Shown here one piece after another: positions 1,079-63,172 of a DNA stretch of 64,000 nucleotides (position 1 is its first letter; every line of letters begins with the position of its first letter). The notes beneath the pieces are model-generated. The model made no database searches, had not been told where the DNA came from, and was given only the letters and a program-made list of their open reading frames with translations. Source of the DNA: Yuukianura sp. NJ FZ-2021. Its lineage: Eukaryota. The translations under genes were made by a program, and so were the position numbers. The stretch spans positions 15,190,001 to 15,254,000 of the forward strand of contig CM102286.1 in the NCBI GenBank assembly GCA_046563655.1. The letters are read 5' to 3'.

Positions 1079-3817
1079 ATGGAGTCGTGGTTGACTGTGG
1101 GAAGAGACGATGGAGAATGTTGGTGTGCGTTGGGATTGGCGCAGTCGCTTGCTGCCTCCGGAACAACCAAAAATACAACCATCTTTACTGGTCAAAATGT
1201 GTCCAACGAAATGAGGTAAATCCGTGCCATATTTTAGTTAAGATTTAAAATTAAGTTAAATTTTTTACGTTCTTTGTGGTGTTAAGATTCCTGCTGGGTC
1301 ATTTCTTTGACCTTGTGCAGCCACTGCCAGCGGAATTCAAGCTGACCTCTGACCTGGCCACTTTCACCCCTTGGACCAAATGTGTCACGTTGGACGCCAA
1401 TTATATCGTAAACCATTTCAATTTAATTTATAAAAACGAAAATTCAAAACTTACCCGCAGTTTTTTGTTGATTAAAGGCACTGGAAAATGTAGATGAACT
1501 TTTTGAAACTTCCCGATCAAAAGATTCTCCGATCGACGCCTCACGTCAAGTTGAAGTGGTGATTTGGAGTCGAGGCGGTTCACGGACGCTTACAAAGTAA
1601 AAGCAGAAATTAAAATTTTCAATTTTTACTTTTTTTACGAAATAAAAGAAGCGTTACCTTTGTAATTCGCAGAGCAAAAACGAAGAAACTTGTTGAAATG
1701 GATTTGAATTTGCTGGGTTCTCTCTGGACTCCAGTGTTCAACGTTCTGTTTCAAATGGACACCGAAGTTCAAAAGTCACTTTTGAAGTCTTGTCCAATCC
1801 CAGCACCAAGTATTCCTCGGAGCTTTGAAAATACTGGCACAAAGGCGGATTTGTCCGAAGCAATTGCAATTGTAGGGATGAGTTGTCGTTTTCCTGGAGC
1901 AAACACGCTGGACGAATACTGGGACATTCTAAAAAACGGAAAACACACAGTGACTCGATTTCCTGTAGGAAGAGCCACTTTTGACATTCCAGGTTAAAAT
2001 CCAAACTCAAAAGTTGTTAACTAAACTCGTAAAAAACTCACGTAATTTGACGTTTGACATTGCAGGAATCGAGGAGTCAGTGGCTGGATTCCTGAGTTGC
2101 CCCATCGATGAGTTTGACCCTGCGTTCTTTGACATTGACCCAGCAGAGGCCTGGGTCATTGACCCCCAGCAACGTCTTTTGCTGGAAGTCGCTTGGGAGA
2201 GTGTGGAAGACGCAGGGATAGATGCAGCTACACTTCGTGGGACGAACGGAGGCGTGTTTGTTGGAAATTTGCTGCAGGACTACGAACGCATGATCCCACC
2301 CAACGACTTGGTGGGTCTGGATGGGACTACTCGGATGGTCGGAAACTGCTTGAGTGGTCTGAGTGGTCGGTTGTCCAGATTTCTAGGTCTTAAGGGTCCC
2401 AGTATTTCTCATGAAGCAGGCTGTTCCTCTGGACTCGGAGCGATGCACTTGGCGTCTGAATCTCTTTTAAGAAAAGAGTGTGATGTGGCTTTGTCTGGCG
2501 CTGTGAATCTCGTGATTCTGCCAAGAGCTTACAACACTGCAGTGCTGTCAGCTCATTTCAAGTGCAAGACATTTGACGAATCGGCTGATGGCTTTGTGTC
2601 TGGAGAGGCCGTGGGAGTTTTGGTTTTGAAGAGATACGCAGATGCAGTGAGGGATGGAGATCGCATTCGGGCAGTCGTCAGAGGAACGGCCATGAGCAAT
2701 GACGGGGCTTCCCTGTGCTACGGAACTCCAAATCCGGAAGGGCATGCAAGAACGCATAAACTGGCTTTGGCAAAAGCAGGAGTTCTGCCAAGAGATGTCG
2801 CCTATGTTGAGACACACGGAACTGGAACACAAAAAGGAGGCAATGTTTAAAAAAATTTCGAAAATTTGAAATTCAATTTCAAGAAAAAAAATGTTTAATT
2901 GTTTTTTGTTTTTGTTTTACTTAGACATCGGAGAGGTGTTTGGATTGGCGGAAGCTTACGGAGGAAACAGAAAGAGTCCGCTTCTGATTGGTTCCGTAAA
3001 GCCGAACATTGGTCACGGTGAAGCGGCTGCCGCTGTGGGTTCACTCGTTAAACTTGTTTTATCTCTGGAAAACGAAGCCATTCCACCAAACATCTTCTTA
3101 AACAAGGTCAATTCCAAGATTGACCTTGACTCCATTCCTGCGCAGATTCCAACACAGTTGACCCCTTGGACCGGAAATGGACGTCTGGCTGGCATCAGTT
3201 CATTTAGTCTCACTGGCTCCCTTGTCCACGCCATCCTCCAGTCAACTCCTCCAAAAAACTCCAGTTTCTTAAACAACCAATCAGACGATGAGAAACCACA
3301 GCTCATCTGCATTTCTGCCAAAACCGGAACTGCTTTGGAGCTTCAACTGGAAAACTACGTTGCCTTCTTGCGTCGAAATGGAAGTGTGAAGTTGGTGGAT
3401 GTTGCCATGGCTGCAAATGTTTGTAGAACCCATTTCTGCCATCGGATAGCAGTTTTGACCAGCAGTGTGGCTGAATTGATAGAGAAGCTGGAGAGTGGGG
3501 ACTACTTGGCAGGAATTGGGACAGAAGTGGGAGAAACTGTGGACGTAGTGGCTGAAAGTGGACAGTGGTCGAAAGTGGAAGTCTATTTGGAAAACGTAGG
3601 GAAATCGTATGTGAAAGGCGGGATTTTGAATTGGTCTGCATGGTTCGGACGGCGGGAAAAGAAAGTTTTCCTGCCTTTTTATCCATTTGAACGCCAGAAA
3701 TACTGGTTCCATCCCTCAGATTTCCCTCTGGTCATGCGCAAACGAATTGCAGAAAGTGAGTCACTTGAGCCACCAAATCTCCCACCTCCAGCCAATGTCC
3801 ACAATTTCAACAGTTGA
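1079..3817 (+). CDS. Fusion protein: degenerate glycogenin/GT8-like N-terminal domain + type I PKS ketosynthase + KS-AT linker and post-AT linker, no AT/ACP (787 aa, 6 exons)
   Basis: Exons 1079-1215, 1287-1407, 1478-1596, 1673-1992, 2066-2839, 2925-3817 join in frame (2364 nt). KS motifs AIAIVGMSCRFPGA, DPQQRLLLEVAWE, AGCSSG (Cys), ETHGTGT (His), KPNIGHGEAAA (His); post-AT motif LPFYPFERQKYW. N-terminus WLTVG..ALGLAQSL..VSNEMR..FD.V..KCVTLDANYIALENVDELF matches the glycogenin pattern. Confidence 0.85.
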
Positions 3818-4025: not shown

Positions 4026-9485
<5,460 letters not shown>

Positions 9486-13026: not shown

Positions 13027-15031
13027 TCAGTGGATCAACTCCATTTTGAAGTTGTGTTTTTGGAGACGTTGGGCAAGAGTCGTTTTGGCAAAGGCCACTC
13101 CAGGAGTAAACACACCACCGCTACAATTCAACACAAAAATAAATCAAAATTAAGTTTTAATTTAAAACACGCATTTTGAATAGAAAAGTATGGGTGACCT
13201 GGGTGGAAGAGCGTCGCTTTCAAAGAGGATTGTGAGAGCGGCCTGGATGATGGCCATACAAGTGAATCCGTAGGCAGGGTTGTTCCCACTCATCTAATTC
13301 AAAGAGTCAATTAAAATTAAACATTGTTCAATTATTGTTTATTATTCTAATTTAATTAAATTACTTTGAGGACGACTCTCTTATCCGGTGGGTTTGGGTA
13401 GTCGCCCTCCTTCGTGTATTTGCTCAGAGGAGACGCCCATCCCCTCCCTTCCAAAGTAAAGGAAAAGTCAAAGGCCTCCATCTGAGCACGCGTAGGACCT
13501 CAACATCAACATTCAAATATATTTAAATAAATATTTAGGATTAAAACATGGAAAATAGAAATATTAGTACCTTCCATAGAGAATATGCCGAGAGAGAAGA
13601 GACGAGGAAACTGGAATAGGTGGAATGAAATTATAATTAAGTGGAATTCATTAATTAGTTAATGTTAATTGGTTAATTTTAGTTGAGTTCTGACGTGATC
13701 CAGGAGATAGAGTCCTCCGGGTATCCTGTGCATGATGGCGTAGAGTCCACATCCCAACAGAACGAGGAGAGTGATGAAAATGTTGGACTGCTTGAGGTAG
13801 GCCACGAACTGCGTCGGTCGCCTCTTCTCCTTCAAGTAAAAATAGTGTTGGGATTTCTCCACTGCCTAAAATGAATTAGTTACAATTAAAACTAATTCAT
13901 TAATTAATCAATTTAAATTCAAATTTTGAATGAGAAAAGTGGTACCCAGAGATCCGGATGTGGAAACGGCATGCACCAGCCTCTTTCGCCAACGTCATTT
14001 CGATGCAACATCCACCTTCTACAAAAAAGAAATCAGAAATGACAAGCTAAAAATTGCAAAATTTTGAATTGAATTGCAATTGAGCGTTACCTGTTGATTG
14101 GGTATTTTGGTTTGGGCAGTTCATCTGGATAGAGTTGACGCAGAAGGGGGCGGAGCTTGGTGATGTTTGCGTAAAAGTGTTGAAGTGAAGTCCAAGTGCC
14201 GTAGTTGATTTTGTTCGTCCAGAGATGCGATCCAATGTAAACATAACACTCCACGGAATTCAAGTCACCTTCAAAAAACTAACATTATTCAAAACTGTTT
14301 GATTTGTTTCAGTTTCCAACTTTACCGTCAAATTGTTGTCGTAAATAGTTGATTCCGCATTCTGATGGAATACCTGCAAAAAACCAATCAAAACTTTCAA
14401 TTCAACTGCTTTTGAAAACAATTTCCAGTTTTTCAGTGTATTTTTAAACAAACTATCGAATCCACAACTGGCGACGACGTAAACTCCCTTCTCTTGAGCT
14501 TCCTTGTGGTATCTGATCTGCATGTCAGTTGCATTGAGAGTCTCAGCAGACAGGTCAATGTGGTGTGTCCCGCTCTTAATACACGCTTTGATTACTGCCT
14601 CTCCTAACAATTTAAAAAAAGAGACACTAAAATTTAAAAAGTATGAAGTTTTAACTTAAAAAGTAGGAAAGACGGACCGTATTTGGCGTAAGGCCCAACT
14701 GTGTTGAGCACAAGGCGACATTGAGCTGCCATCTTCTCCAGCGACGCTTCATCCGCCACGTCTGCCACAATCTTCTCAACTTCCCCCAACTCCTCACCTA
14801 AAATTCAAAAAACAGTTCAACAGCAGTTCATAAACACATATTTTGAAATTTACCAGTAAAAGTTGCAACTTCCTGGAGGATTTGTTCCAGTTTGTGAACA
14901 GATCGTCCTGCTACTGCCCACGTAAACTTCTCCGAGTGACCTGCCTTTTCCGTCAACACTATTTGCTCAACAACATGCTTCCCACTGAACCCAGTGGCTC
15001 CAAACACAACCAAATCAAACCTCCTCTCCAT
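13027..15031 (-). CDS. SCCPDH: Saccharopine dehydrogenase-like oxidoreductase, paralog A
   Basis: MERRFDLVVFGATGFSG, WAVAGRS, VLNTVGPYAKYGEAVIKACI, GVYVVASCGFDS, C-terminal GGVFTPGVAFAKT; multiple GT-AG introns. Confidence 0.88.
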
Positions 15032-22522: not shown

Positions 22523-24825
22523 ATGTCTGTTCGTGCCACTTCGTATTTCCTGGGAGACTGCAAGGGAGTGAACGACTACTTGAAGGGACGCCATGGTCTG
22601 TTCTGGGGATTAGTCAAGTACCTCAACGCCCTCTTCAGAGGAGTAGGACAGGTCAACACTCCCACAAACATTTTTAATCAAAAAGTTTCAAAATTTTAAC
22701 TTTTAAATTTTCAAAATTTCCTAAAGGTTGTTTTTGCAAACAATCCGTGGAGTGGGCTGATTATTCTGGGTGGTTTGTACTGGGCAAGTATCCTCGTGGG
22801 ATTTGCAACCACCGTGGCAGCAACCACAGCAATCCTCACTGCTATTGTAAACCTACTCCCACCATATTTTCAAACTTAAAAATCTTCTTCAAGATGAAAT
22901 TGTAGAGTTGATTAAAATTTTCAAGAGTATTTGTCCGTTTTTGAGGTATTTAAGCAAACGGAGTCGAAGATCACGAATGGCCTGACGACGTACTGCGCAG
23001 TGCTGGTGGGGAGCATCACTGCTTCCTTATGGGAACCCACTTACGGGGAACCCCTCAACCCCCTCGTGTGGGGGTTCATCGTGCTCTGTGCTGCTCTGAG
23101 TGTCCTCGTCAACGCAGGATTAGTCAACATCCTCGGCAGTTTCAGACCCCCACTCCCCTCTTTCACGCTCGCATTCAACGTAGTCACCATTTTACTATTC
23201 ACTGTTTTGCAACCAAGGGCTACACCAGTCGCCAGAAACACGCAAAACATTCCATCACTGGAAAATGGACGTACCAAAGACGGAAATGTGGACCCCATGC
23301 TCGTAAATCCCCAACTGACCTTTGACCTAGCTAACAGTTTGATTTTCGTTTCTGGCCAACTCTTTTTCCAAGTTTTGTTTATAAAAATTTACGATTTTTC
23401 CTTAATTTACAATTTTTCCTTATTTTTGTTTCGTTCTGCTCACTTTTTATCATGTTTCAAACGTTTTTGGAACGTTTCGAGCAAAACACTTTTTTTGAAC
23501 CCAAAGGGCCCCCGCTTCCTTTTTTTTTTTTTTTTTGAAAATCTTGGACTCGAAAATTTTCACGATAAAAAACTTGGAAAAAAGTTTCACTGCCCCATAA
23601 ACGACAAGTTAACCGAACTAACTGACGTTTAAGCTTGGAAATGGAATGAATGAATTGAGGACTGACCTTGTAGGTGCTGGAAGGGATCATGCTGTCCATG
23701 GGCCAAGTGTATGGAGTCCAGCATCTCAAGGGAAGTGTGGCCATGTACGCTGCAACCATCCTCTACTCACCCACACTCTGCATCATGAGCATAGTCGGAG
23801 CCTCGGTCGGAAGCTGCTTCGGTAAATTCCGAAAATATTTTCAAAAAATTTTCAAATTTTTTAAATTCTGAAAACAATTTAATTCAAAACTTGAATTTCA
23901 AATTTTGAACAAAGTTTTTAAAAGTTTTTTTGAACGTTTCAGGAATTGTGTTTGCTGGTCCCACTTACCAAACAGTCTACGACGGAATCTGGGGGTTCAA
24001 CCCCATTTTGGCCGCAATCGCACTCGGAGCCTTCTTCTTCGTTCCTACTTCGCTCAGTTTTTGGCTTGCAATAGCAGACGTCGCACTGGTCGTCCTCATC
24101 CAAAGGGCCATGAACATCGCCTTCACTCCAGTAAGTGTCTCTTGTCCTCAGATTGACCTTTGACCTCAGATTGACCTTTGACCTCTGCTTCTCAGCTAAG
24201 ACTGCCCTTCTTCACGTTCCCCTTCGTCATCGCCACCATGTTCTTCCTAGAAGTGACTGCAACTGGCAACATTCTGACCAGGGTCATCAAGTTCTCATAC
24301 CCAGAACAGCATCTGAGGGAATTCATCCAAAAAACATACCTCAAACCCCCAATGCCCACCGACACTGAAATCACCCATCGAAAAACCCACTCACCCGAAA
24401 TCACCCACCGAAAAACCCACCCACCCTCTGCTCCCACCCTCCCACTCTACAACTCACCAGGTGACAATTTACAACATTTTACAAATTCAAACTCAAAAAT
24501 TTTAAATTTTTTTTGTTCGTTCCTAAAAAAAATTTTAAATTTAAACGGGAATTTTTTTAAATTTTGTACAGACTACACGAATTTTGCTGAACAAGGATAC
24601 TTGGACGAGACTCCTGAAAATGAAAACGCTACGAATGAAGATATTTACCAGTTTCCCCTGAATCCCCAATTCTACTCTCAAGGTCACCGTGACCTTGACC
24701 TTCCTTACAATTTTTCCAACTACCAAAACCAAATCTCCCACCAACCAATTTTTGTTGGATATCCCAAACTCCCAGTTCAATTGCAGTCTCGCACTGCCAA
24801 TGCCCAGCACTTCCGCCCAAGGTAG
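22523..24825 (+). CDS. Urea transporter (SLC14/UT family)
   Basis: FRGVGQVVFANNPWSGLII, LPSFTLAFN, SMGQVY, YDGIWGFNPILAAIA, LPFFTFPF motifs across GT-AG exons; long low-complexity C-tail with a duplicated EITHRKTH. Confidence 0.88.
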
Positions 24826-54756: not shown

Positions 54757-56596
54757 TCAAAGTTTGTGGTGTGATGATGAAAGTAAGTCTGGCAAAATAC
54801 CATCATCTAGCGTACAATGCAAGGATGTTCCTGGGCCGAGTTCAACCGTCGGTACAGGATTATGATGTCCTATTTCACCACTCCCTTGAACCAATTCCAC
54901 AGTTGGGGTCATGTACGCAGGAGACAAAATGGGATTCGGATGAAGTCCCACTCCCGTCAGCTTCGAATCCAGACTCCATTTCCCTTCTGGAACCTCGACC
55001 TCGCGACTTGAGGTCTTGAGCCATTTCATTTTGCATCCGATCAGCGAACAGTGATTGTACAACATCCCAACTGAAAAGAAACAAATCACAACTCGCATGC
55101 ATTCCAAACAAATAGTAGATGGTGGGCCAGAGCTTACTTGTTGCATAAACCCCTCCGATGATTGCACAAAGACGAACAAAGAATTCCATGAAAGATTCAC
55201 TCTCTTCGGTCACTTCAACCTAATAAAAAAAATCAGATTCTTCCTGCGTTCTTGGCGAGATGACAGAAGATTATAAATCTAGATCTCACCTTCAGTCCAC
55301 TCATTTCGTACTTGAAGAAAATTCCCTGGAAAACCAGAAAACATTGAGAAATTGAACTTACGTTACGATTTCTGTTAAGGAGTTTGGTATAACTTACTGA
55401 AATTCCATGTGAGCCCTGGTCATGGTTAATTTCTCTGGAAAATTCTCTGACTGAATACTGGTAGGTCAAGTAGGACTTAAAGCGCGTCTTTACAAGTGTT
55501 GGAACCACTTGAATAAAGTAGTGGTAAACCATCTGATCTATTCAATTCAAACAAGTCAACTTATTTAGAAAAACTAAAGTCAGTCGCTGTACTTACTGAC
55601 TGGTGCAATCTTTTCCTCTCCTTCAAGCGGGAGTACAATCCCTGGCGTTCCTTCACCAAAAGAAAACTTGGAGATTCTGTGGGAGAAGTTGTAGTCTCGT
55701 TCCGTCATGAAGGCAGCGATATGGGCATGGCCACGAGGAAGCGGCAGTGTCTTCCCAGCCGTGATGTGAAAATTTCCAGCCACTTTGTTCAGTTCCAGTC
55801 TTCCATACAGACGACATGATTGTTTGACTCGGTGATAGTCCAACTCCTCCCTCGTCCTAGACAAAATGGAAAAAGATTATACATACTGCCAAATATTGTT
55901 CAATTGAACTATTTATGTTGTTTTACATAGGAGGCATTTCGGCATGTGAATTGAGAAATGCGTTCTTCCATAAGATCTGATGGAGCGAGTGATATTCCTC
56001 TCTCAAATAGGAATTGAAGCTGGCTTTGGCTTGGAAATACGCCCTCTGAGCTTCCCCAAGTGCAAAGTGAACATACTCTTCTTCCAGTTCCCCAAATTTC
56101 ACCAGATTTTGGTTCGTCGAGTCCACTATGTCAGCCCCAATATCTAAAATCAAAACAACACAATATGAAACACAGTAACAAAAAGTACGCAAATATCACA
56201 GTAATCTAAATCTAAGTGTGAAAATAGTAAATCTTACTGCTGCAGGGCATGGCGACGGACATGTCGACGTTGATGCTCAGTTTGGAATCCATGTCAACAT
56301 CAGGGCTGAAGTGGAAGGTAAAATCTGAGTCCAGATAGTAGCCCACTTCCAGAATGCTGAGCCAAAGGATGAGGATGATTGCAACTACCGAGGCTACAAG
56401 AAACCATAATAGAGTAACGATTAACAAAAGGAGATGAAATACGTAAATGTGGGATGGCGAAGGACGTACCAGTGCCTCCATAAGATGTCTTCTCCTCGTA
56501 TGTTTCTGGGACTTTGGGGAAAACATCCAAGTTTTCCACAGCTTGCAACACCTTGATCTTCCTTCTCCTGATTTGAGCCGCTCCTTGCTCAGCCAT
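54757..56596 (-). CDS. ERGIC2: ER-Golgi intermediate compartment protein 2 (Erv41 homolog)
   Basis: LDVFPKVPETYEEKTSYGG, INVDMSVAMPC, IGADIVDSTNQ, CRLYGRLELNKVAGNFHITAGK, YNFSHRI, YHYFIQVVPT, GIFFKYEMS, VRLCAIIGGVYAT. Confidence 0.93.
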
Positions 56597-57628
56597 CACA
56601 TTAATTAATCAAAACTGGAACAACTAATTAATAGTTAAGGTTTAACACGCTCACTGATTAAATTAAAAAAGTGATTTGTTTTGCTTTTGACTTTTGAATT
56701 TGGGAAAAGAGTTGGCGCACTTTTGTCTCAAGTTTATGTAGAGAAGTGTCTAATAGGCAGATAATCAATCAGACAAGTGTCTAATAGGCAGATAATCAAT
56801 AAGCAGTTTCCCTTTTCAGAGGATTAGCCTGAGACAAAGTAAAATTGTGGAGAGTGGCACCTTTCACGTCCGCACTCTGGAGTTACTTCCAACTTTTCTC
56901 CACTTGACCTAAAAGGGAGCACAAATTGTGAAGACAGGCTCGTTACTTCGTCGGTCCGCACTCTGGAGTTGCTGGTTAATCTTCTCCCCTTTATATAAAA
57001 GGGAACACAATCCAAAATTGAAAGAAAGTTGAATTTAGTTGGAACCGGAGGGAAAGTGGATGAATGCTCTTCCAGCCACTTAATGCATAACATCACATAG
57101 GTCATCTTTCCCAATGGATCATTCATCGGTTCACATGAAGGTCAAATGCTGTGTTCTGAAAACCTCCAAATAAAAGTCACATTTAATAAATAGGGAAGAT
57201 TCAGTTGGTTCTTGTACAACTGACACAACAAACATCATGAAAAGTAGTTTGCTCTGCTGACACACAAAAAGCCCAGTTTTCAACTTCACCTTTACATGGT
57301 TTCCGGTCCACCCCAAATCAATGCCCATCAAACCGGTCTTCACATTGCTCACTTTTCGGCTGCCCAGTTTGAGGCATTCCCAACAATTGAAACCTCAGTT
57401 CCGTTCTGAAATTCGACATTGCCATCCAAGCTCTGTCGAGCATCAGCATCTTTCTCTTCACCAAAATTCAATTTCAATAGCTGGAGACAAGCGTTTGAGT
57501 GGAGTTAGCTTCATGCTTCTTTGAATTTCTGCAAAGAGGCATGTAAAACGTCTAAGAATCAAAGTGGAACTACATTTTTAAAAGTTTGAAGTGTAGCTAA
57601 CCTAAAACTTTGGTGTTTTGGAAAGAGG

Positions 57629-59980
57629 ATGGATGTGAGAGCTGTTCTCGTCCTGATCTTCCTGTCTGCGGCTGCTTTTGGGAAATCCGTGACCCCTAAG
57701 CAGCAAGTGACCCCGTCGATTCAAGTAGAGCCTCTGAGCAGCATCGGACGGATCAAAAATCCCAAAAACTTCAACTATGGCCACCAACAGCCGAAACAAG
57801 GCCCTCTGCCGGACCCCGTCCTCATCTCATCCTCCATCAGAATCAACAAGGACACGCCCTACCAACCTCCCCGCAAATACGCTCCTAAGGAATTGAATAA
57901 GCGACAAATCTTCATCCAGGATCAGACGCAGTTGACCCCCAGTCAACCGCCGCATCAGGGTGAGCAAACCATTTTCTATTCTCCCAATCAGCACAACTAC
58001 GCTACACCGGAAGTTCCTCTCTACGCCACTCCAGCTCCACTCCAATTCCAAACAGTAACAGCACTTCCTCTCAACACAAATCAAGGTCAAATGTTCCTGT
58101 TGCAACAAACGCCGCAGGCATACTCACCTTTGACCCAACCAATCTCAAAGTTTGTGGCAAGAACAGGAGAAACAGAACCACAATCATCACTACAACCCAA
58201 AGTTAGCATCGTGAGTCACGCAGATCCAAATGCCCAACAGGATTCTGCCAAGAGAGACCATGGTCAAAAAGAGCATCCAAAGTCTCAACAGGAAATCCAG
58301 TACGAAGAAGCTCAGCAAGTTCTACAGAATATCATCAAGCAACAGGCTCTGCAGCAAACGCAGCAACAGAGACAGCACCAATTTCAATTGGCACAGCAAA
58401 TCCAAGAACAGTTTACGATTCAGGCTCAGCAACAGGCAGCGCAGGCGCAACTTGAAGCTCAACAGGCAGACCAAAACCAACAAATTCTCCTCTCAACATT
58501 ACCCCAAGTCCCAATTCAAACAAACCAACCACAAATGTTTCAACTGCAAACTTCTGCACAGCAACAAGTTTACCAAGCACCCAATGGGCAAACCTACATT
58601 CTGCACAAGCAGGAACCAAAAGAAGAGCAGCCAGAGGTCACAGGTCAACCTACACAAATCCAACCCCAATACACGCTACAAAAGCCACTTACCCCAACAC
58701 ATCCAGAACACAAAGGTCAAACCAAATTCATCATCAGACACCAGACTTACGTGACTGGCCCTGGAGGTCAAATGTTTACAGTTCCAGTCCCAGTTCCAGC
58801 AGAAGAAAATCCCAACTCCAGAGAAGGATCTGGAGAAGAGGGGGCAGAGGAGAGGAAAGACGAAGGGAGCAGAGAGGAGGAAAGAAGGGACGAAGGGCCC
58901 CCTCATCGTCCTCCCCCTCGCCCCCTCAATTCCTTCATGCGAAGAGTCATGGAGGCCTTCAGTGTGCGCGGAGATGCAAGTGAAAGAGTGGGAACGAACA
59001 TTGCTTTGCCAATTCTGGCTTCGACTGGCGTGTTCTTTGGTCTGGGGGCCCTTGCTGCTGGTTGGTACTTGTCAAATGCAAACAGAGAAGTTGGGATTCT
59101 GCGTCGAACAGGGAAGCCAGTTCCACAAGGGACGCATAACGTCAAAAGAATCAGGCGCCACCTCCCCACGCCACCACCAGAAGTGGACCAAGCCAGTTTC
59201 TTCCAAAGCATAATTCAACAAGCGATTGAAAAGCAGCAAGAGCAGTTTGAAGATCCCGCTGTTTCCCCTGCAGCGGAAACAGAATATGGTCCAGCCCCAG
59301 GAAGATTTCCACCTCAGAATCATCGCTTTCCGCCTCAAAATCGACAAGACTTGCATGAAGGAGGTCATGGCGACAGTTCAGCCAACTCCAAAGTGGGTCA
59401 TCGTCCAATCCAGAAGAAGTCTGCATGGTTCGTGTCGAGTCAAACTCTTAACTTTTTTAAAGTTGCTATTCCAGCGGTGGTTCTTGGTGGAGCCGTTGTG
59501 GCCATTGGGGTTCTAATCTTTGGGTGGTACATTACGGGCAGCAACCGAGAAATTGCTTTCCTTGAACCTTCCGCCTACTCCAGACGGAAACGAGACATCA
59601 CGACGACAGCGTTGAGTGATGGGTGGCTCCAACGCCTCCTCAACTCCATCCACCAGAGTCCCTATGATGAGGACCCACCAGCCTTTGACCCCTTGACCTC
59701 TCTGTCCACAAGTAAAGGGAACATCGAGTATCATGCAAATGTGTCTGACGCAGTCGTGGCTGTGTCTTTGGCCGTCATTGCTTTTCTCTCGCTTCTCGGA
59801 ATAGTCTTTGCTTGGCTAGCAGCACAAAATGAAAAGTCCAATTTGGGTGTGGAGGGGGCTTATGGCTTCGGAGGGTGGCCTGGGAGCAGATCCAAGCGAT
59901 CCTTACTTGATTCCCTCCAGTTGACCTTTGACCTTGCACAGCAAAATATAGGCCAGTTGAGTGGCTCGGACAGAAACTGA
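57629..59980 (+). CDS. Intronless 783-aa Gln/Pro-rich secretory-pathway protein with three hydrophobic segments each followed by an RXXR site
   Basis: Long ORF with signal peptide MDVRAVLVLIFLSAAAFG; hydrophobic helices ending GWYLSNANRE, GWYITGSNRE, AWLAAQNEK; downstream RIRR, RRKR, RSKR. Confidence 0.8.
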   Translation: MDVRAVLVLIFLSAAAFGKSVTPKQQVTPSIQVEPLSSIGRIKNPKNFNYGHQQPKQGPLPDPVLISSSIRINKDTPYQPPRKYAPKELNKRQIFIQDQTQLTPSQPPHQGEQTIFYSPNQHNYATPEVPLYATPAPLQFQTVTALPLNTNQGQMFLLQQTPQAYSPLTQPISKFVARTGETEPQSSLQPKVSIVSHADPNAQQDSAKRDHGQKEHPKSQQEIQYEEAQQVLQNIIKQQALQQTQQQRQHQFQLAQQIQEQFTIQAQQQAAQAQLEAQQADQNQQILLSTLPQVPIQTNQPQMFQLQTSAQQQVYQAPNGQTYILHKQEPKEEQPEVTGQPTQIQPQYTLQKPLTPTHPEHKGQTKFIIRHQTYVTGPGGQMFTVPVPVPAEENPNSREGSGEEGAEERKDEGSREEERRDEGPPHRPPPRPLNSFMRRVMEAFSVRGDASERVGTNIALPILASTGVFFGLGALAAGWYLSNANREVGILRRTGKPVPQGTHNVKRIRRHLPTPPPEVDQASFFQSIIQQAIEKQQEQFEDPAVSPAAETEYGPAPGRFPPQNHRFPPQNRQDLHEGGHGDSSANSKVGHRPIQKKSAWFVSSQTLNFFKVAIPAVVLGGAVVAIGVLIFGWYITGSNREIAFLEPSAYSRRKRDITTTALSDGWLQRLLNSIHQSPYDEDPPAFDPLTSLSTSKGNIEYHANVSDAVVAVSLAVIAFLSLLGIVFAWLAAQNEKSNLGVEGAYGFGGWPGSRSKRSLLDSLQLTFDLAQQNIGQLSGSDRN

Positions 59981-60777: not shown

Positions 60778-63172
60778 TTATGTGGATGTTGCTGGTAAAG
60801 AGTAGAAATCCTTTCTGCGCAGAATTAGAACACTCGGCTCAGTTATAATTCTGATTGGAGGATGACGACGCCAGTGAAAGTCTATGTGGTGGAATGCTTC
60901 TACTGTTCCAGCAACTTCATGACTCTGGAAGTAAGCATATCGCTCCTCTAACTTATTTGCATGCACAAATATGTGTGTGAACGCAAGCATTTCCTTCCCA
61001 CCCACTGACAGATCTTCAGTCTTGTTGTACCTTCAAAAACAAAGTAAAAACGTTAGCTTATTTCGAAAAAAAATTTAAGTATGAAGTGGAGACACTCTTC
61101 AATTTTCTTTAGTAAAGCATCGAAAGTGAGTCCCCAATACTTTTATGGTTAAACAGAACTCTATGTACACTCTGCACAGTTCAATTTAACCATAAAATCA
61201 TTGGAAGTCACCTGCCAATACTCTTATGGTTAAATTGAACTGTGAGGACACTCTGCACACTTCCGTTTAACCATAAAATCATTGCTAGGTGCCTTCCAAT
61301 GCTCTTATGGTTAAATTGAACTGTGTAGGCACTCTGCACAGTTCAATTTAACCATAACATCATTAGAAGTGACCTACCAATGCTGCTATGGTTAACCTCA
61401 AATGTGTGGATATTCTGTACAGTACACTTTAACCATAAAAGAATCAAAGATCCCAATGCTGTTTATGGTTTCTTTAATGTAAAAAGAGGAATCTGTGTAT
61501 TTCTTACGTCCAGTGCGAGTAGAGTTGTAGGAATCTGGAGACTCCTGTTTGGGCAGAATGTACATCAATGTGAACGTTGACTGGAGCGACGGCTGACTCA
61601 ATTTGATGCAACTTGCGGAGAGCTGTTCCTCCTGGATAATTGTGACTAGACACAACCAGGAAGCCAGTCGTCAGTACAGCATTGAGTACCAGGTGGAACA
61701 AAAGAGCCACTGACATGAGTGTAGAAAGGAGCCCTTTGACTCTGTTTCTCCAGATTTGGTCTGCTCCCACTGCAGCAGCAACATTCACAACTGGAATGAC
61801 GTAGATGATGAAACGAAGCTCCTTGTGCGGAAGAAACGAGTAGAAAAAGACAAAGAGAAGACATGGAATGACGAGTATTCGTACACGACGACTGAGCCAG
61901 AGTCCGATTGGAATTAGAAAGAGAGAGGAGAGGAGACTGCGTGGAATGGCGGAGTAAAAGTACCACAAGAATGGAGATGTCTGCACCAAACAAAAAAACT
62001 CGTCACAAACTTAACAATTTTCTCGGATTGTGGAAAAATAAAGTAAGAAGTTGTTTACCCCCCAGTTGTGACTTTGGTTCCGAATGGTGTTGAACCAGAG
62101 AACTTCTCCCTCTGGCCACAGCCATCTTCTCCAGAAGATGGAGTCAATTAGAAACGTTAGAGCCAGTGACCCAAGCCCACTCGGAATTGAATACTTGATT
62201 GCCCTACCAAAGAATTATTGTAAATAAAGTACTAAGAATGGTTCGTAGTAATGCGATGATGATGATAGAATATTTAAATCTTACGATAGAAGTGATATTC
62301 TTCTACGAAGTAATTCGTAGATTAGAAGGAGGCCAAAGAGGGAGACTAGTTCGGCCCTGAAGACCAAGGAATCAAAAGCTGCTGCCAGAATGAATAGTGC
62401 ATGATGTCCTTCCATCCAAAAGTGCAAAGCTAGTAGAGCTAAAAGAAGAAATAGAAATTCAAATTCAAATTCCTTTCATAAGACGTTTAGAGAGAAGTGG
62501 ATGACCTGGTGGAAGTGCAAAGATGTTGGGAAGTGTTCGTCCCATGTAGAAGACAAAGTGAAACTGAGATGCAGTGATCATGACTAGCCACCAGCCCACT
62601 CTGGAACCAAATTGCTTCGACACACTTCTGCGGAATTGTTGGAAGGCTCGAATGACGCATTCTGCCAAGCAGATTCGGACTAAAATGCAAATGAAACAAT
62701 GGAACTTATAACTGAAGTAAATGTTTGATTTTATTGATGAAGTGGTGTTTTACCAATGATTTGTGCTGGAAACTTGGTGAAGAAGAGTTGTGAAAGGATG
62801 ACGAAGGGATATGAGACAGCGGAGAGAAGCAATGGTCCAATAAACGTTCTTGGAACGACTCCCCCAAACTCCAGATGATCATACTGCGAAAAAGACAAAG
62901 GGTTAAAACGTTGAACTTGAAAGTTAGTTTATATAAAAAATGAAGTGTAGTGGACTTACTGAATCCAAGTTAGTTTGATGGTAGATGAGATCGTGCGTAG
63001 CCTGGAGATTGAAGCTCTCTTCTACCTTGGTGAGTGGACAAGTGAAGATGTGGATGAGGGCAACTACTCGCAGAAGCACTTCCGGTTGCAACGCAAACAC
63101 TGGAACCTTTGCTACTTCCAGTCTTTTCTCTTCTCTTCCTTGCCATTTGCCTGAACCTCCGCGTTGTTTCAT
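60778..63172 (-). CDS. ALG12: Dol-P-Man alpha-1,6-mannosyltransferase
   Basis: [94 protein letters not shown]; start codon uncertain. Confidence 0.93.
61133..61470. repeat. ~81-bp tandem repeat (~4 copies), each unit palindromic, in the last ALG12 intron
   Basis: CCAAT.CT.TTATGGTTAAA...TTTAACCATAA..ATCATTG recurs at ~61134, 61215, 61296, 61377. Confidence 0.85.

Follow-up and report, generated by a model that had tools for sequence, protein, structure and literature searches.

The window analysed here, a 64,000-nucleotide stretch of contig CM102286.1 from Yuukianura sp. NJ FZ-2021 (positions 15,190,001 to 15,254,000), carries near its start a six-exon gene on the plus strand (1079-3817) for a type I polyketide synthase (PKS) ketosynthase (KS) domain, with its linkers and with no recognisable acyltransferase (AT) or acyl carrier protein (ACP) domain. 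Joined by their coordinates, the exons give 2364 nt (787 codons plus the stop) with no internal stop codon. The introns are small, measuring 71, 70, 76, 73 and 85 bp in order, and comprise four of the GT-AG type and one of the GC-AG type. On the plus strand, the KS is spread over three long open frames (1614-1997, 1969-2850 and 2870-3817), which can be read from the DNA as exons: the first ends in CCAG/gttaaa (1992/1993; slashes mark splice junctions) and the second starts after ..ttgcag/GAATCG (2066).

Gene model and ketosynthase domain

Three short exons encode most of a head that precedes the KS. Exon A (1079-1215) opens with the ATG at 1079, reads M-E-S-W and ends in ATGAG/gtaaat. Exon B (1287-1407) lies between the acceptor ..gttaag/ and the donor /gtaaac, which keep the frame, and exon C (1478-1596; ..LENVDELFE..) lies between ..attaaag/ and /gtaaaa, the only sites that do so. 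Exon D (1673-1992; acceptor ..ttcgcag/AGC) encodes the end of the head, or a linker, before entering the KS at 1857, where it matches PF00109 positions 2-40. The KS core, with the active-site cysteine and the first histidine, resides in exon E (2066-2839), which ends in AG/GCAATG. Exon F begins at the acceptor ..acttag/ACATCG, and its first part (2925-3244) encodes the C-terminal half of the KS with the second histidine, as indicated by PF02801 and by alignment. Two introns split the KS, at 1993-2065 (73 bp) and 2840-2924 (85 bp). The latter is the GC-AG intron (AG/GCAATG...cttag/A). Exons E and F join in frame only if exon E ends at 2839, and the join then reads T-H-G-T-G-T-Q-K-G-D-I-G-E, aligned to the G-D-P-I-E stretch of bacterial KS domains. 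The only nearby GT, at 2845, would put the reading out of frame and soon lead to a stop, truncating the KS.

By Pfam, the exon translations match both families that together mark a type I PKS KS domain, PF00109 (E 3.5e-10 for exon D and 6.2e-52 for exon E) and PF02801 (E 1.4e-11 and 6.5e-13), and hmmsearch places the KS envelope at residues 188-597 of the model. The active-site cysteine (TGT, 2422-2424, in ..EAGCSSG..), the first histidine (CAC, 2815-2817, in ETHGTGT) and the second histidine (CAC, 3014-3016, in NIGHGE) line up with the triad in nine KS sequences, bearing out an earlier note on this DNA, which had read all three as retained. That note also described a stand-alone KS. The description holds for a single KS without AT or ACP; however, three in-frame upstream exons, starting from the ATG at 1079, add a glycogenin-derived head, so that the protein is not a bare KS.

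The G+C content at third codon positions (GC3) is 0.46 in the PKS-type coding sequence and 0.49 in the adjoining exon of an ABCC4-like gene, a closeness which suggests that the gene has long been resident. Its intron pattern, its GC3 and the flanking animal genes show it to be a resident eukaryotic gene. Bacterial contamination was considered separately and is ruled out by the five spliceosomal-type introns, the host-like GC3 and the intron-rich animal genes on its flanks.

Relatives, the missing acyltransferase and the two ends of the protein

Word-indexed protein searches with exons E and F covered proteins of up to 2000 aa (8000 candidates), a range in which longer animal models were possibly missed. 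They returned bacterial-type proteins at no more than 53% identity, together with the fungal P0118 and the eukaryote-database entry P0386, and no named springtail PKS protein was among these matches. An exhaustive search of representative proteins gave 40,366 at E<=0.001. Among the best 150 of these, mostly giant multi-module PKSs, only P0242 exceeded 39% identity (59% over 502 aa), and it lies on a metagenome contig of 4518 bp. Scanning metagenome contigs with P0242 yielded four loci, L001 to L004, two of which, L001 and L004, were informative; both come from one metagenome. A look-up in the ESM Atlas found bacterial clusters only.

L001 is the same type of gene, an intact model with exons A, B and C, matching intron phases and no AT. 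L004 has the head exons followed by one 1620-codon open frame in which Pfam recognises KS, AT, dehydratase (DH) and enoylreductase (ER) domains. KS identity to L004 is 55.5% for the window gene and 56.0% for L001, and the eukaryotic-type head and small introns are common to all three. Whereas the window gene is without the full reducing module (AT, DH, ER or ketoreductase (KR), and ACP), L004 keeps its modules up to the end of its contig. Divergently upstream of the L004 PKS gene, a 597-codon frame (L004 2-1792, minus strand) matches the AMP-binding family PF00501; its product may be the partner that activates the starter for this PKS.

Comparison with L004 delimits the deletion. By tblastn, L004 residues 340-536 correspond to window 2924-3514, a stretch that ends with the KS-to-AT linker or flanking subdomain (3245-3514, plus strand; ISAKT...RTHFCHRIAV), and L004 residues 850-897 correspond to the post-AT linker (3581-3724, plus strand; YVKGG..NW..LPFYPFERQKYW). 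L004 residues 537-849 in between are without counterpart: some 313 residues holding the AT (Pfam 549-863) are reduced to 66 nt, a 22-residue spacer (3515-3580, plus strand). The same gap appears against P0007, whose residues 874-915 match the post-AT linker, and against CurL. In the PDB search, CurL (4mz0) residues 360-557 lie on exon-F residues 2-190 and residues 893-936 on 219-261, and the CurL AT is skipped. The first linker is recognised by PF16197 (E 1.8e-13), PF22621 (CurL-like PKS C-terminal; 1e-18) and PF22336 (RhiE-like KS-MAT linker; 1.7e-7), and neither AT (PF00698) nor ACP (PF00550) was matched in the exon translations at E<=0.1. The earlier note had proposed a cleanly excised AT with both linkers kept, to be checked by a domain scan, and both the scan and the alignments agree with it. 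We take these alignments to show that, in the predicted protein, the AT was deleted in frame, leaving the KS, the flanking linker subdomain and the post-AT linker in place. The protein has the KS and linker subdomain of a trans-AT module and, like such a module, no AT in cis. The carrier domain of a trans-AT module was not found: PF00550 gave no match, and the ACP parts of homologues matched nowhere in the window. No free-standing AT gene was seen within the 64 kb, either by Pfam on the 20 other long open reading frames (ORFs) or by tblastn.

The introns of the KS differ between these relatives. The KS exon of L001 lacks intron 4 of the window gene and has a counterpart of intron 5 at the identical position and phase, with a GT donor. 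L004 has no intron at the position of 2840-2924, and this intron is therefore specific to the AT-less branch. Intron 4 (1993-2065) is absent from both L001 and L004, where the ORFs run on continuously, and may be a recent gain in a gene acquired by horizontal transfer.

About 185 head residues precede the KS. Residues 1-83 of the window protein match the L001 head exons at 59% and 43% identity, and residues 2-79 match the L004 head, to which exon B also aligns and whose head exon is matched by exon A at E 1.4e-5. Exon A has in common with that of L001 its 137-nt length, its phase and its M-E-S-W start (59% identity). The first head exon of L004 matches glycogenin-1 in the PDB (17 of 18 matches; best E 0.009). 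Window exon A by itself gave no glycogenin match, its PDB hits being only chance matches to matrix metalloproteinase (MMP) fibronectin-type repeats, and Pfam matched neither the small head exons nor five of six upstream ORFs. The glycogenin nature of the window head is thus read through its relatives, whose heads match, the window exons alone being silent. Exon B has D-A-N where glycogenin, as we take it, carries a DxD motif. We regard the head as glycogenin-derived and degenerate.

The C-terminus of the window protein is a short, proline-rich tail (3725-3817, plus strand) with the stop TGA at 3815-3817. It reads N-V-H-N-F-N-S-stop and ends where the relatives begin their DH (N-V-H-P-L-L-G). 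In L001, the last exon continues for 212 codons past the linker, starting N-V-H-P-L-L-G; it has no Pfam match, and this tail aligns to L004 DH residues 914-1084 at 21% identity (E 9e-5), with a deletion just after H-P-L-L-G. Within the remainder of the L001 contig, nothing above noise indicated further exons. On the predicted models, the window copy is also shortened C-terminally, relative to an L001 that continues into a DH remnant. Downstream of the window stop, no DH remnant rose above noise, even with the L001 tail as query at E<=100, and tblastn with PKS queries, run over both strands of the 64 kb, gave no other coding sequence for an AT, ACP, DH or KR. The 31 high-scoring segment pairs (HSPs) from eight homologues all fell inside 1683-3766, and the 26 from six full-length PKSs, one of them the KS-AT-DH-ER ORF of L004, all fell inside 1815-3724 (E<=1). 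Downstream AT or ACP exons, which the earlier note had named as the finding that would undo its reading, were recognised nowhere in the window by tblastn or Pfam. A donor-like AAA/GTGAGT occurs at 3756-3761, inside the last exon and 60 nt short of the stop. At this point L001 is without an intron, and no exon that could be joined to this donor was found downstream in the window.

The KS gene converges with the 3′ part of an ABCC4-like gene (4054-7892, minus strand; Pfam ABC_tran and ABC_membrane). The earlier note gave both the KS-gene stop at 3817 and the convergence correctly; the distance to the ABCC4-like stop (4054-4056) is 236 bp, however, and not about 210. The ABCC exon has its top identity among named matches with Orchesella dallaii (57% over 88% of the query); other matches are P0392 (Phthorimaea; 56%, over 46% only), Allacma fusca (51%) and numerous ABCC4 proteins of arthropods and fish at about 50%. 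The host is thus likely to be an arthropod, probably a springtail. Pfam found no PKS family in the 20 other long ORFs, recognising only the ABC transporter and pieces of a urea transporter (22916-23629, plus strand), an Alg9-like mannosyltransferase (61507-62010, minus strand), an ERGIC N-terminal domain (56215-56595, minus strand) and a saccharopine-dehydrogenase-like domain (14263-14655, minus strand). A single 796-codon open frame at 57590-59977 (plus strand) has no Pfam match. Its product is rich in glutamine and proline, starts like a signal peptide and contains several hydrophobic segments; the frame lies in a stretch that is locally GC-richer and A-skewed.

Descent of the ketosynthase and selection after AT loss

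To place the window KS, a local HMM was used to cut 303 KS domains out of 232 proteins. Each was labelled according to how far beyond the KS the L-P-x-Y-P-F motif lies: 119 counted as cis-AT, 56 as AT-less and 26 as intermediate, and 102 were unknown. The tree (IQ-TREE quick mode, LG+G4, SH-aLRT support) comprised 127 KS domains, namely all 56 AT-less, 60 random cis-AT, the three focal sequences and the rows of 14 named proteins; 176 were left out. The window KS groups with L001 at a support of 100, and this pair with L004 likewise at 100, so that all three springtail-type rows form one clade. The trio sits in a half of the tree in which 51 of 71 rows are cis-AT, and its closest neighbours by path length, P0037, P0389 and P0050 (McyG according to its source), are all cis-AT. 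Across a branch with support 100, the other half holds 40 AT-less KS domains, including those named PksN and PksL in their sources. In this unrooted quick tree, with its motif-distance AT label, the window KS falls outside the trans-AT KS clade. The cis-AT half itself contains AT-less rows in several places, among them P0002, P0004 and the pair P0014/P0036, which indicates that AT loss is recurrent. P0014 (630 aa) and P0036 (638 aa) are bacterial free-standing KS-linker proteins that end right after L-P-T-Y-P-F, in parallel to the C-terminal layout of the window protein.

By its sequence, then, the KS of the window gene is of the cis-AT type and has lost the AT. Given a paralogue-type sister that still bears the AT, L004, and a position in the cis-AT half, its resemblance to trans-AT modules stems from secondary deletion. 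The earlier label of "trans-AT-like" fits the layout, with both linkers and no AT, but not the ancestry. No closeness to the animal fatty acid synthase (FAS)-like PKSs (AFPKs) was found, the EcPKS1 and EcPKS2 chains scoring 57-59 bits vs 141.6 for CurL. These comparisons show the predicted window gene and L001 to be an AT-deleted branch of a bacterial-type, cis-AT, reducing PKS family with a glycogenin-derived head.

An AlphaFold2 model of exon F, built from a 12-row alignment, had a mean pLDDT of 70, with values of 81-96 over the linker subdomain (residues ~121-200). Its top Foldseek matches were crystal structures of trans-AT KS-linkers, OzmN KS2 (4wky; E 6e-15, 268 columns), BGC11 and OzmH. 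Aligned columns numbered ~260-300 (of 296 residues) for trans-AT KS-linker structures and 210-263 for cis-AT KS-AT structures (CurL, DEBS), at TM 0.38-0.45. At the sequence level, 4wky residues 343-588 align unbroken to exon-F residues 18-264 (E 2e-30), and 7zma also aligns unbroken, while the best single-stretch score in the PDB search was that of the cis-AT CurL (120.8 bits vs ~75 for trans-AT KS-linker structures). As weak evidence, the model would fit a flanking subdomain that is compact and closed up without an AT.

To gauge selection, substitutions between the window gene and L001 were counted by the Nei-Gojobori method. Over the 427 codons of the KS, amino acid identity is 79%, with pN 0.139 and a saturated pS of 0.853. 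The linker (146 codons) is 51% identical, with pN 0.331 and pS 0.895, and the stretch before the KS (63 codons) 27% identical, with pN 0.564 and pS 0.709. Since synonymous sites are saturated, the true KS ratio lies below the raw pN/pS of 0.16, far from the value near 1 that the earlier note had proposed as the mark of a decaying fragment. In relative-rate tests with L004 as outgroup, the KS has 25 changes private to the window and 15 private to L001 (Tajima chi-square 2.5, p=0.11), and the linker has 14 and 8 (p=0.20). At columns invariant elsewhere, the window changed twice, both times conservatively (V/L, I/L), and L001 three times. AT loss is common to the window gene and L001, which are sisters, and by parsimony it predates their split; the KS was constrained afterwards. 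In coding sequence, therefore, the KS shows strong purifying selection after AT loss. This argues for a maintained KS-only protein, as predicted from the gene model, rather than a decaying fragment.

Possible roles and comparison with known systems

What might such a protein do? We put at about even the chances that it is a maintained, catalytically competent KS-only enzyme acting in trans. The predicted protein would presumably be a dimer, like other PKS ketosynthases. It would be unable to load or carry substrates itself and, having no loading or carrier domain of its own, would have to work in trans. Other PKS or FAS proteins in the animal could supply the acyl chain and the malonyl extender from their carrier and AT domains; alternatively, acyl-CoA thioesters could be used directly. 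The reaction would be a decarboxylative Claisen condensation. Such a layout would be comparable to the KS-linker unit of a trans-AT module, reached independently by domain loss. Our fuller proposal, which we hold tentatively and as somewhat short of probable, is that springtails maintain a dedicated, trans-acting KS-only enzyme derived from a horizontally acquired cis-AT PKS whose AT was deleted and whose downstream part has eroded. The enzyme would be joined to a dead glycogenin head and would rely on the carrier and loading domains that other proteins provide.

Several observations weigh against a maintained enzyme. The DH remnant kept in L001 is lost in the window copy, which ends in a low-complexity tail, and the L001 contig itself ends 344 bp past its last exon, so that it does not cover the sequence beyond. 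The KS branch is longer in the window than in L001 (0.14 vs 0.091), though the difference in changes is not significant. The selection signal averages both lineages and is compatible with the window copy having recently lost its function. Splicing of intron 5 relies on a GC donor, where L001 has AG/GTGATT at the same position and phase. Lastly, the motifs ..GCSSG and F-S-L-T-G, which run through the whole clade of window, L001 and L004, differ from the canonical KS forms, which we take to be ..ACSSS and G-F-G-G; the triad itself is retained in all three.

Most of these points feed an alternative that we judge unlikely, though less so than the others. In it, the AT-less lineage was functional, as in L001 and perhaps with additional downstream domains, and the window copy is a recently disabled remnant, cut at the DH boundary by a rearrangement near the ABCC gene, and now a young, still open pseudogene or an unexpressed relic. 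The L001-type tail is gone from the window without remnant, the gene ends 236 bp from the stop of its convergent neighbour, a GC donor stands where L001 has GT, and the KS branch of the window copy exceeds that of L001 by a factor of about 1.5. However, the six exons (2364 nt) are free of stops and frameshifts, the two copies do not differ significantly in rate, and the changes at invariant sites are conservative. The lost tail, moreover, was already a degenerate DH in L001, with its low identity to the L004 DH and the region after H-P-L-L-G deleted, and its loss need not matter.

A role without catalysis seems to us more doubtful still. The KS-linker and head would then form a dimerisation or docking subunit that tunes full-length paralogous PKSs, in the manner of a chain-length factor or as a dominant negative. 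The KS and linker are the dimer core of type I PKSs, a KS-only protein has no means to load or hold substrates, and the G-F-G-G-like motif is deviant across the clade, all of which would suit such a partner. A structural role would not need the triad, however, and the triad is kept in both AT-less members despite saturated synonymous divergence.

It is very improbable that the gene is not truncated at all and that DH, KR and ACP exons are spliced on from the AAA/GTGAGT donor at 3756, or lie unrecognised further out. The donor resembles the consensus, and L001 does run on past the linker; yet no PKS-like coding sequence was found elsewhere in the window on either strand (six full-length queries at E<=1; for the L001 tail, E<=100), the following 10 kb are taken up by the convergent ABCC gene, and L001 has no intron at the position matching 3756. 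Uptake of a genuine trans-AT module as such from bacteria is hardly credible: the best whole-length PDB and fold matches do include the trans-AT KS-linkers 7zma, 4wky and 4ope, and AT-less bacterial proteins (P0002, P0004, P0014 and P0036) are among the sequence matches, but the window KS groups at 100 with an AT-bearing L004 that shares its eukaryotic head, inside the cis-AT half, and its top single-stretch PDB score is to the cis-AT CurL.

Returning to the maintained KS-only enzyme, the AT loss and a conserved KS with an intact triad are common to two relatives whose synonymous divergence is saturated, which suggests that animals can dismantle foreign megasynthases into working pieces. If the proposed action in trans is true, the gene would be an animal case of dissociated type I PKS logic, an independent, convergent route to the trans-AT layout. 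It would also be a natural experiment on the capabilities of a lone KS-linker unit. If inactive, it would still record in what order a transferred gene sheds its domains as it decays, the AT first, then the DH and the rest.

Springtails have been reported to carry 30 type I PKS clusters, with most genes of the predicted clusters also identified as products of horizontal gene transfer (HGT) (PMC5490193), and one horizontally acquired springtail type I PKS gene, OXA62418.1, is cited in PMC10764717. The window gene is like these in having a bacterial-type KS in an intron-bearing animal gene among ordinary animal genes, with bacterial sequence relatives. The accessible text of PMC5490193 and PMC10764717 describes neither an AT-less or KS-only member nor a glycogenin-derived head, and the springtail PKS literature found, as far as its text was available, contains no biochemical description of a bacterial-type springtail PKS. 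No AT-less or KS-only animal PKS appears in the titles or abstracts found on springtail polyketides, on PKSs of Orchesella, on glycogenin with PKSs and on trans-AT systems with Folsomia.

The trans-AT KS-linkers (OzmN KS2 4wky, OzmH KS7 4ope, Brevibacillus BGC11 7zma/7zm9, and bacillaene PksJ/PksL 4na1/5e5n) share with the window protein a KS, a flanking subdomain and L-P-x-Y-P-F, with no AT. Unlike them, the window KS lies outside their clade, has no carrier domain and is accompanied by no trans-AT gene in the 64 kb. CurL (4mz0), from the cyanobacterial cis-AT curacin synthase, aligns over the C-terminal half of the KS and both linkers; its residues 557-893, the AT, are without counterpart in the window gene. 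P0014 and P0036, the latter annotated 'polyketide synthase' from Cyanobacteria bacterium J069, are similar in having only PF00109, PF02801, PF16197, PF22621 and PF22336, but share 31-44% identity (tblastn), sit on a separate branch of the tree and have no glycogenin-like head. L004 is the closest of the AT-bearing systems; it shares the head exons and the KS indels and motifs that are specific to the clade, and has 55.5% KS identity and a sister position at 100. It differs in keeping AT, DH and ER in one uninterrupted exon, whereas the window gene has none of the three and two introns in its KS. Springtail PKS genes acquired by HGT are already in print; what is new here is the predicted AT-deleted, KS-only branch, together with the evidence for its conservation.

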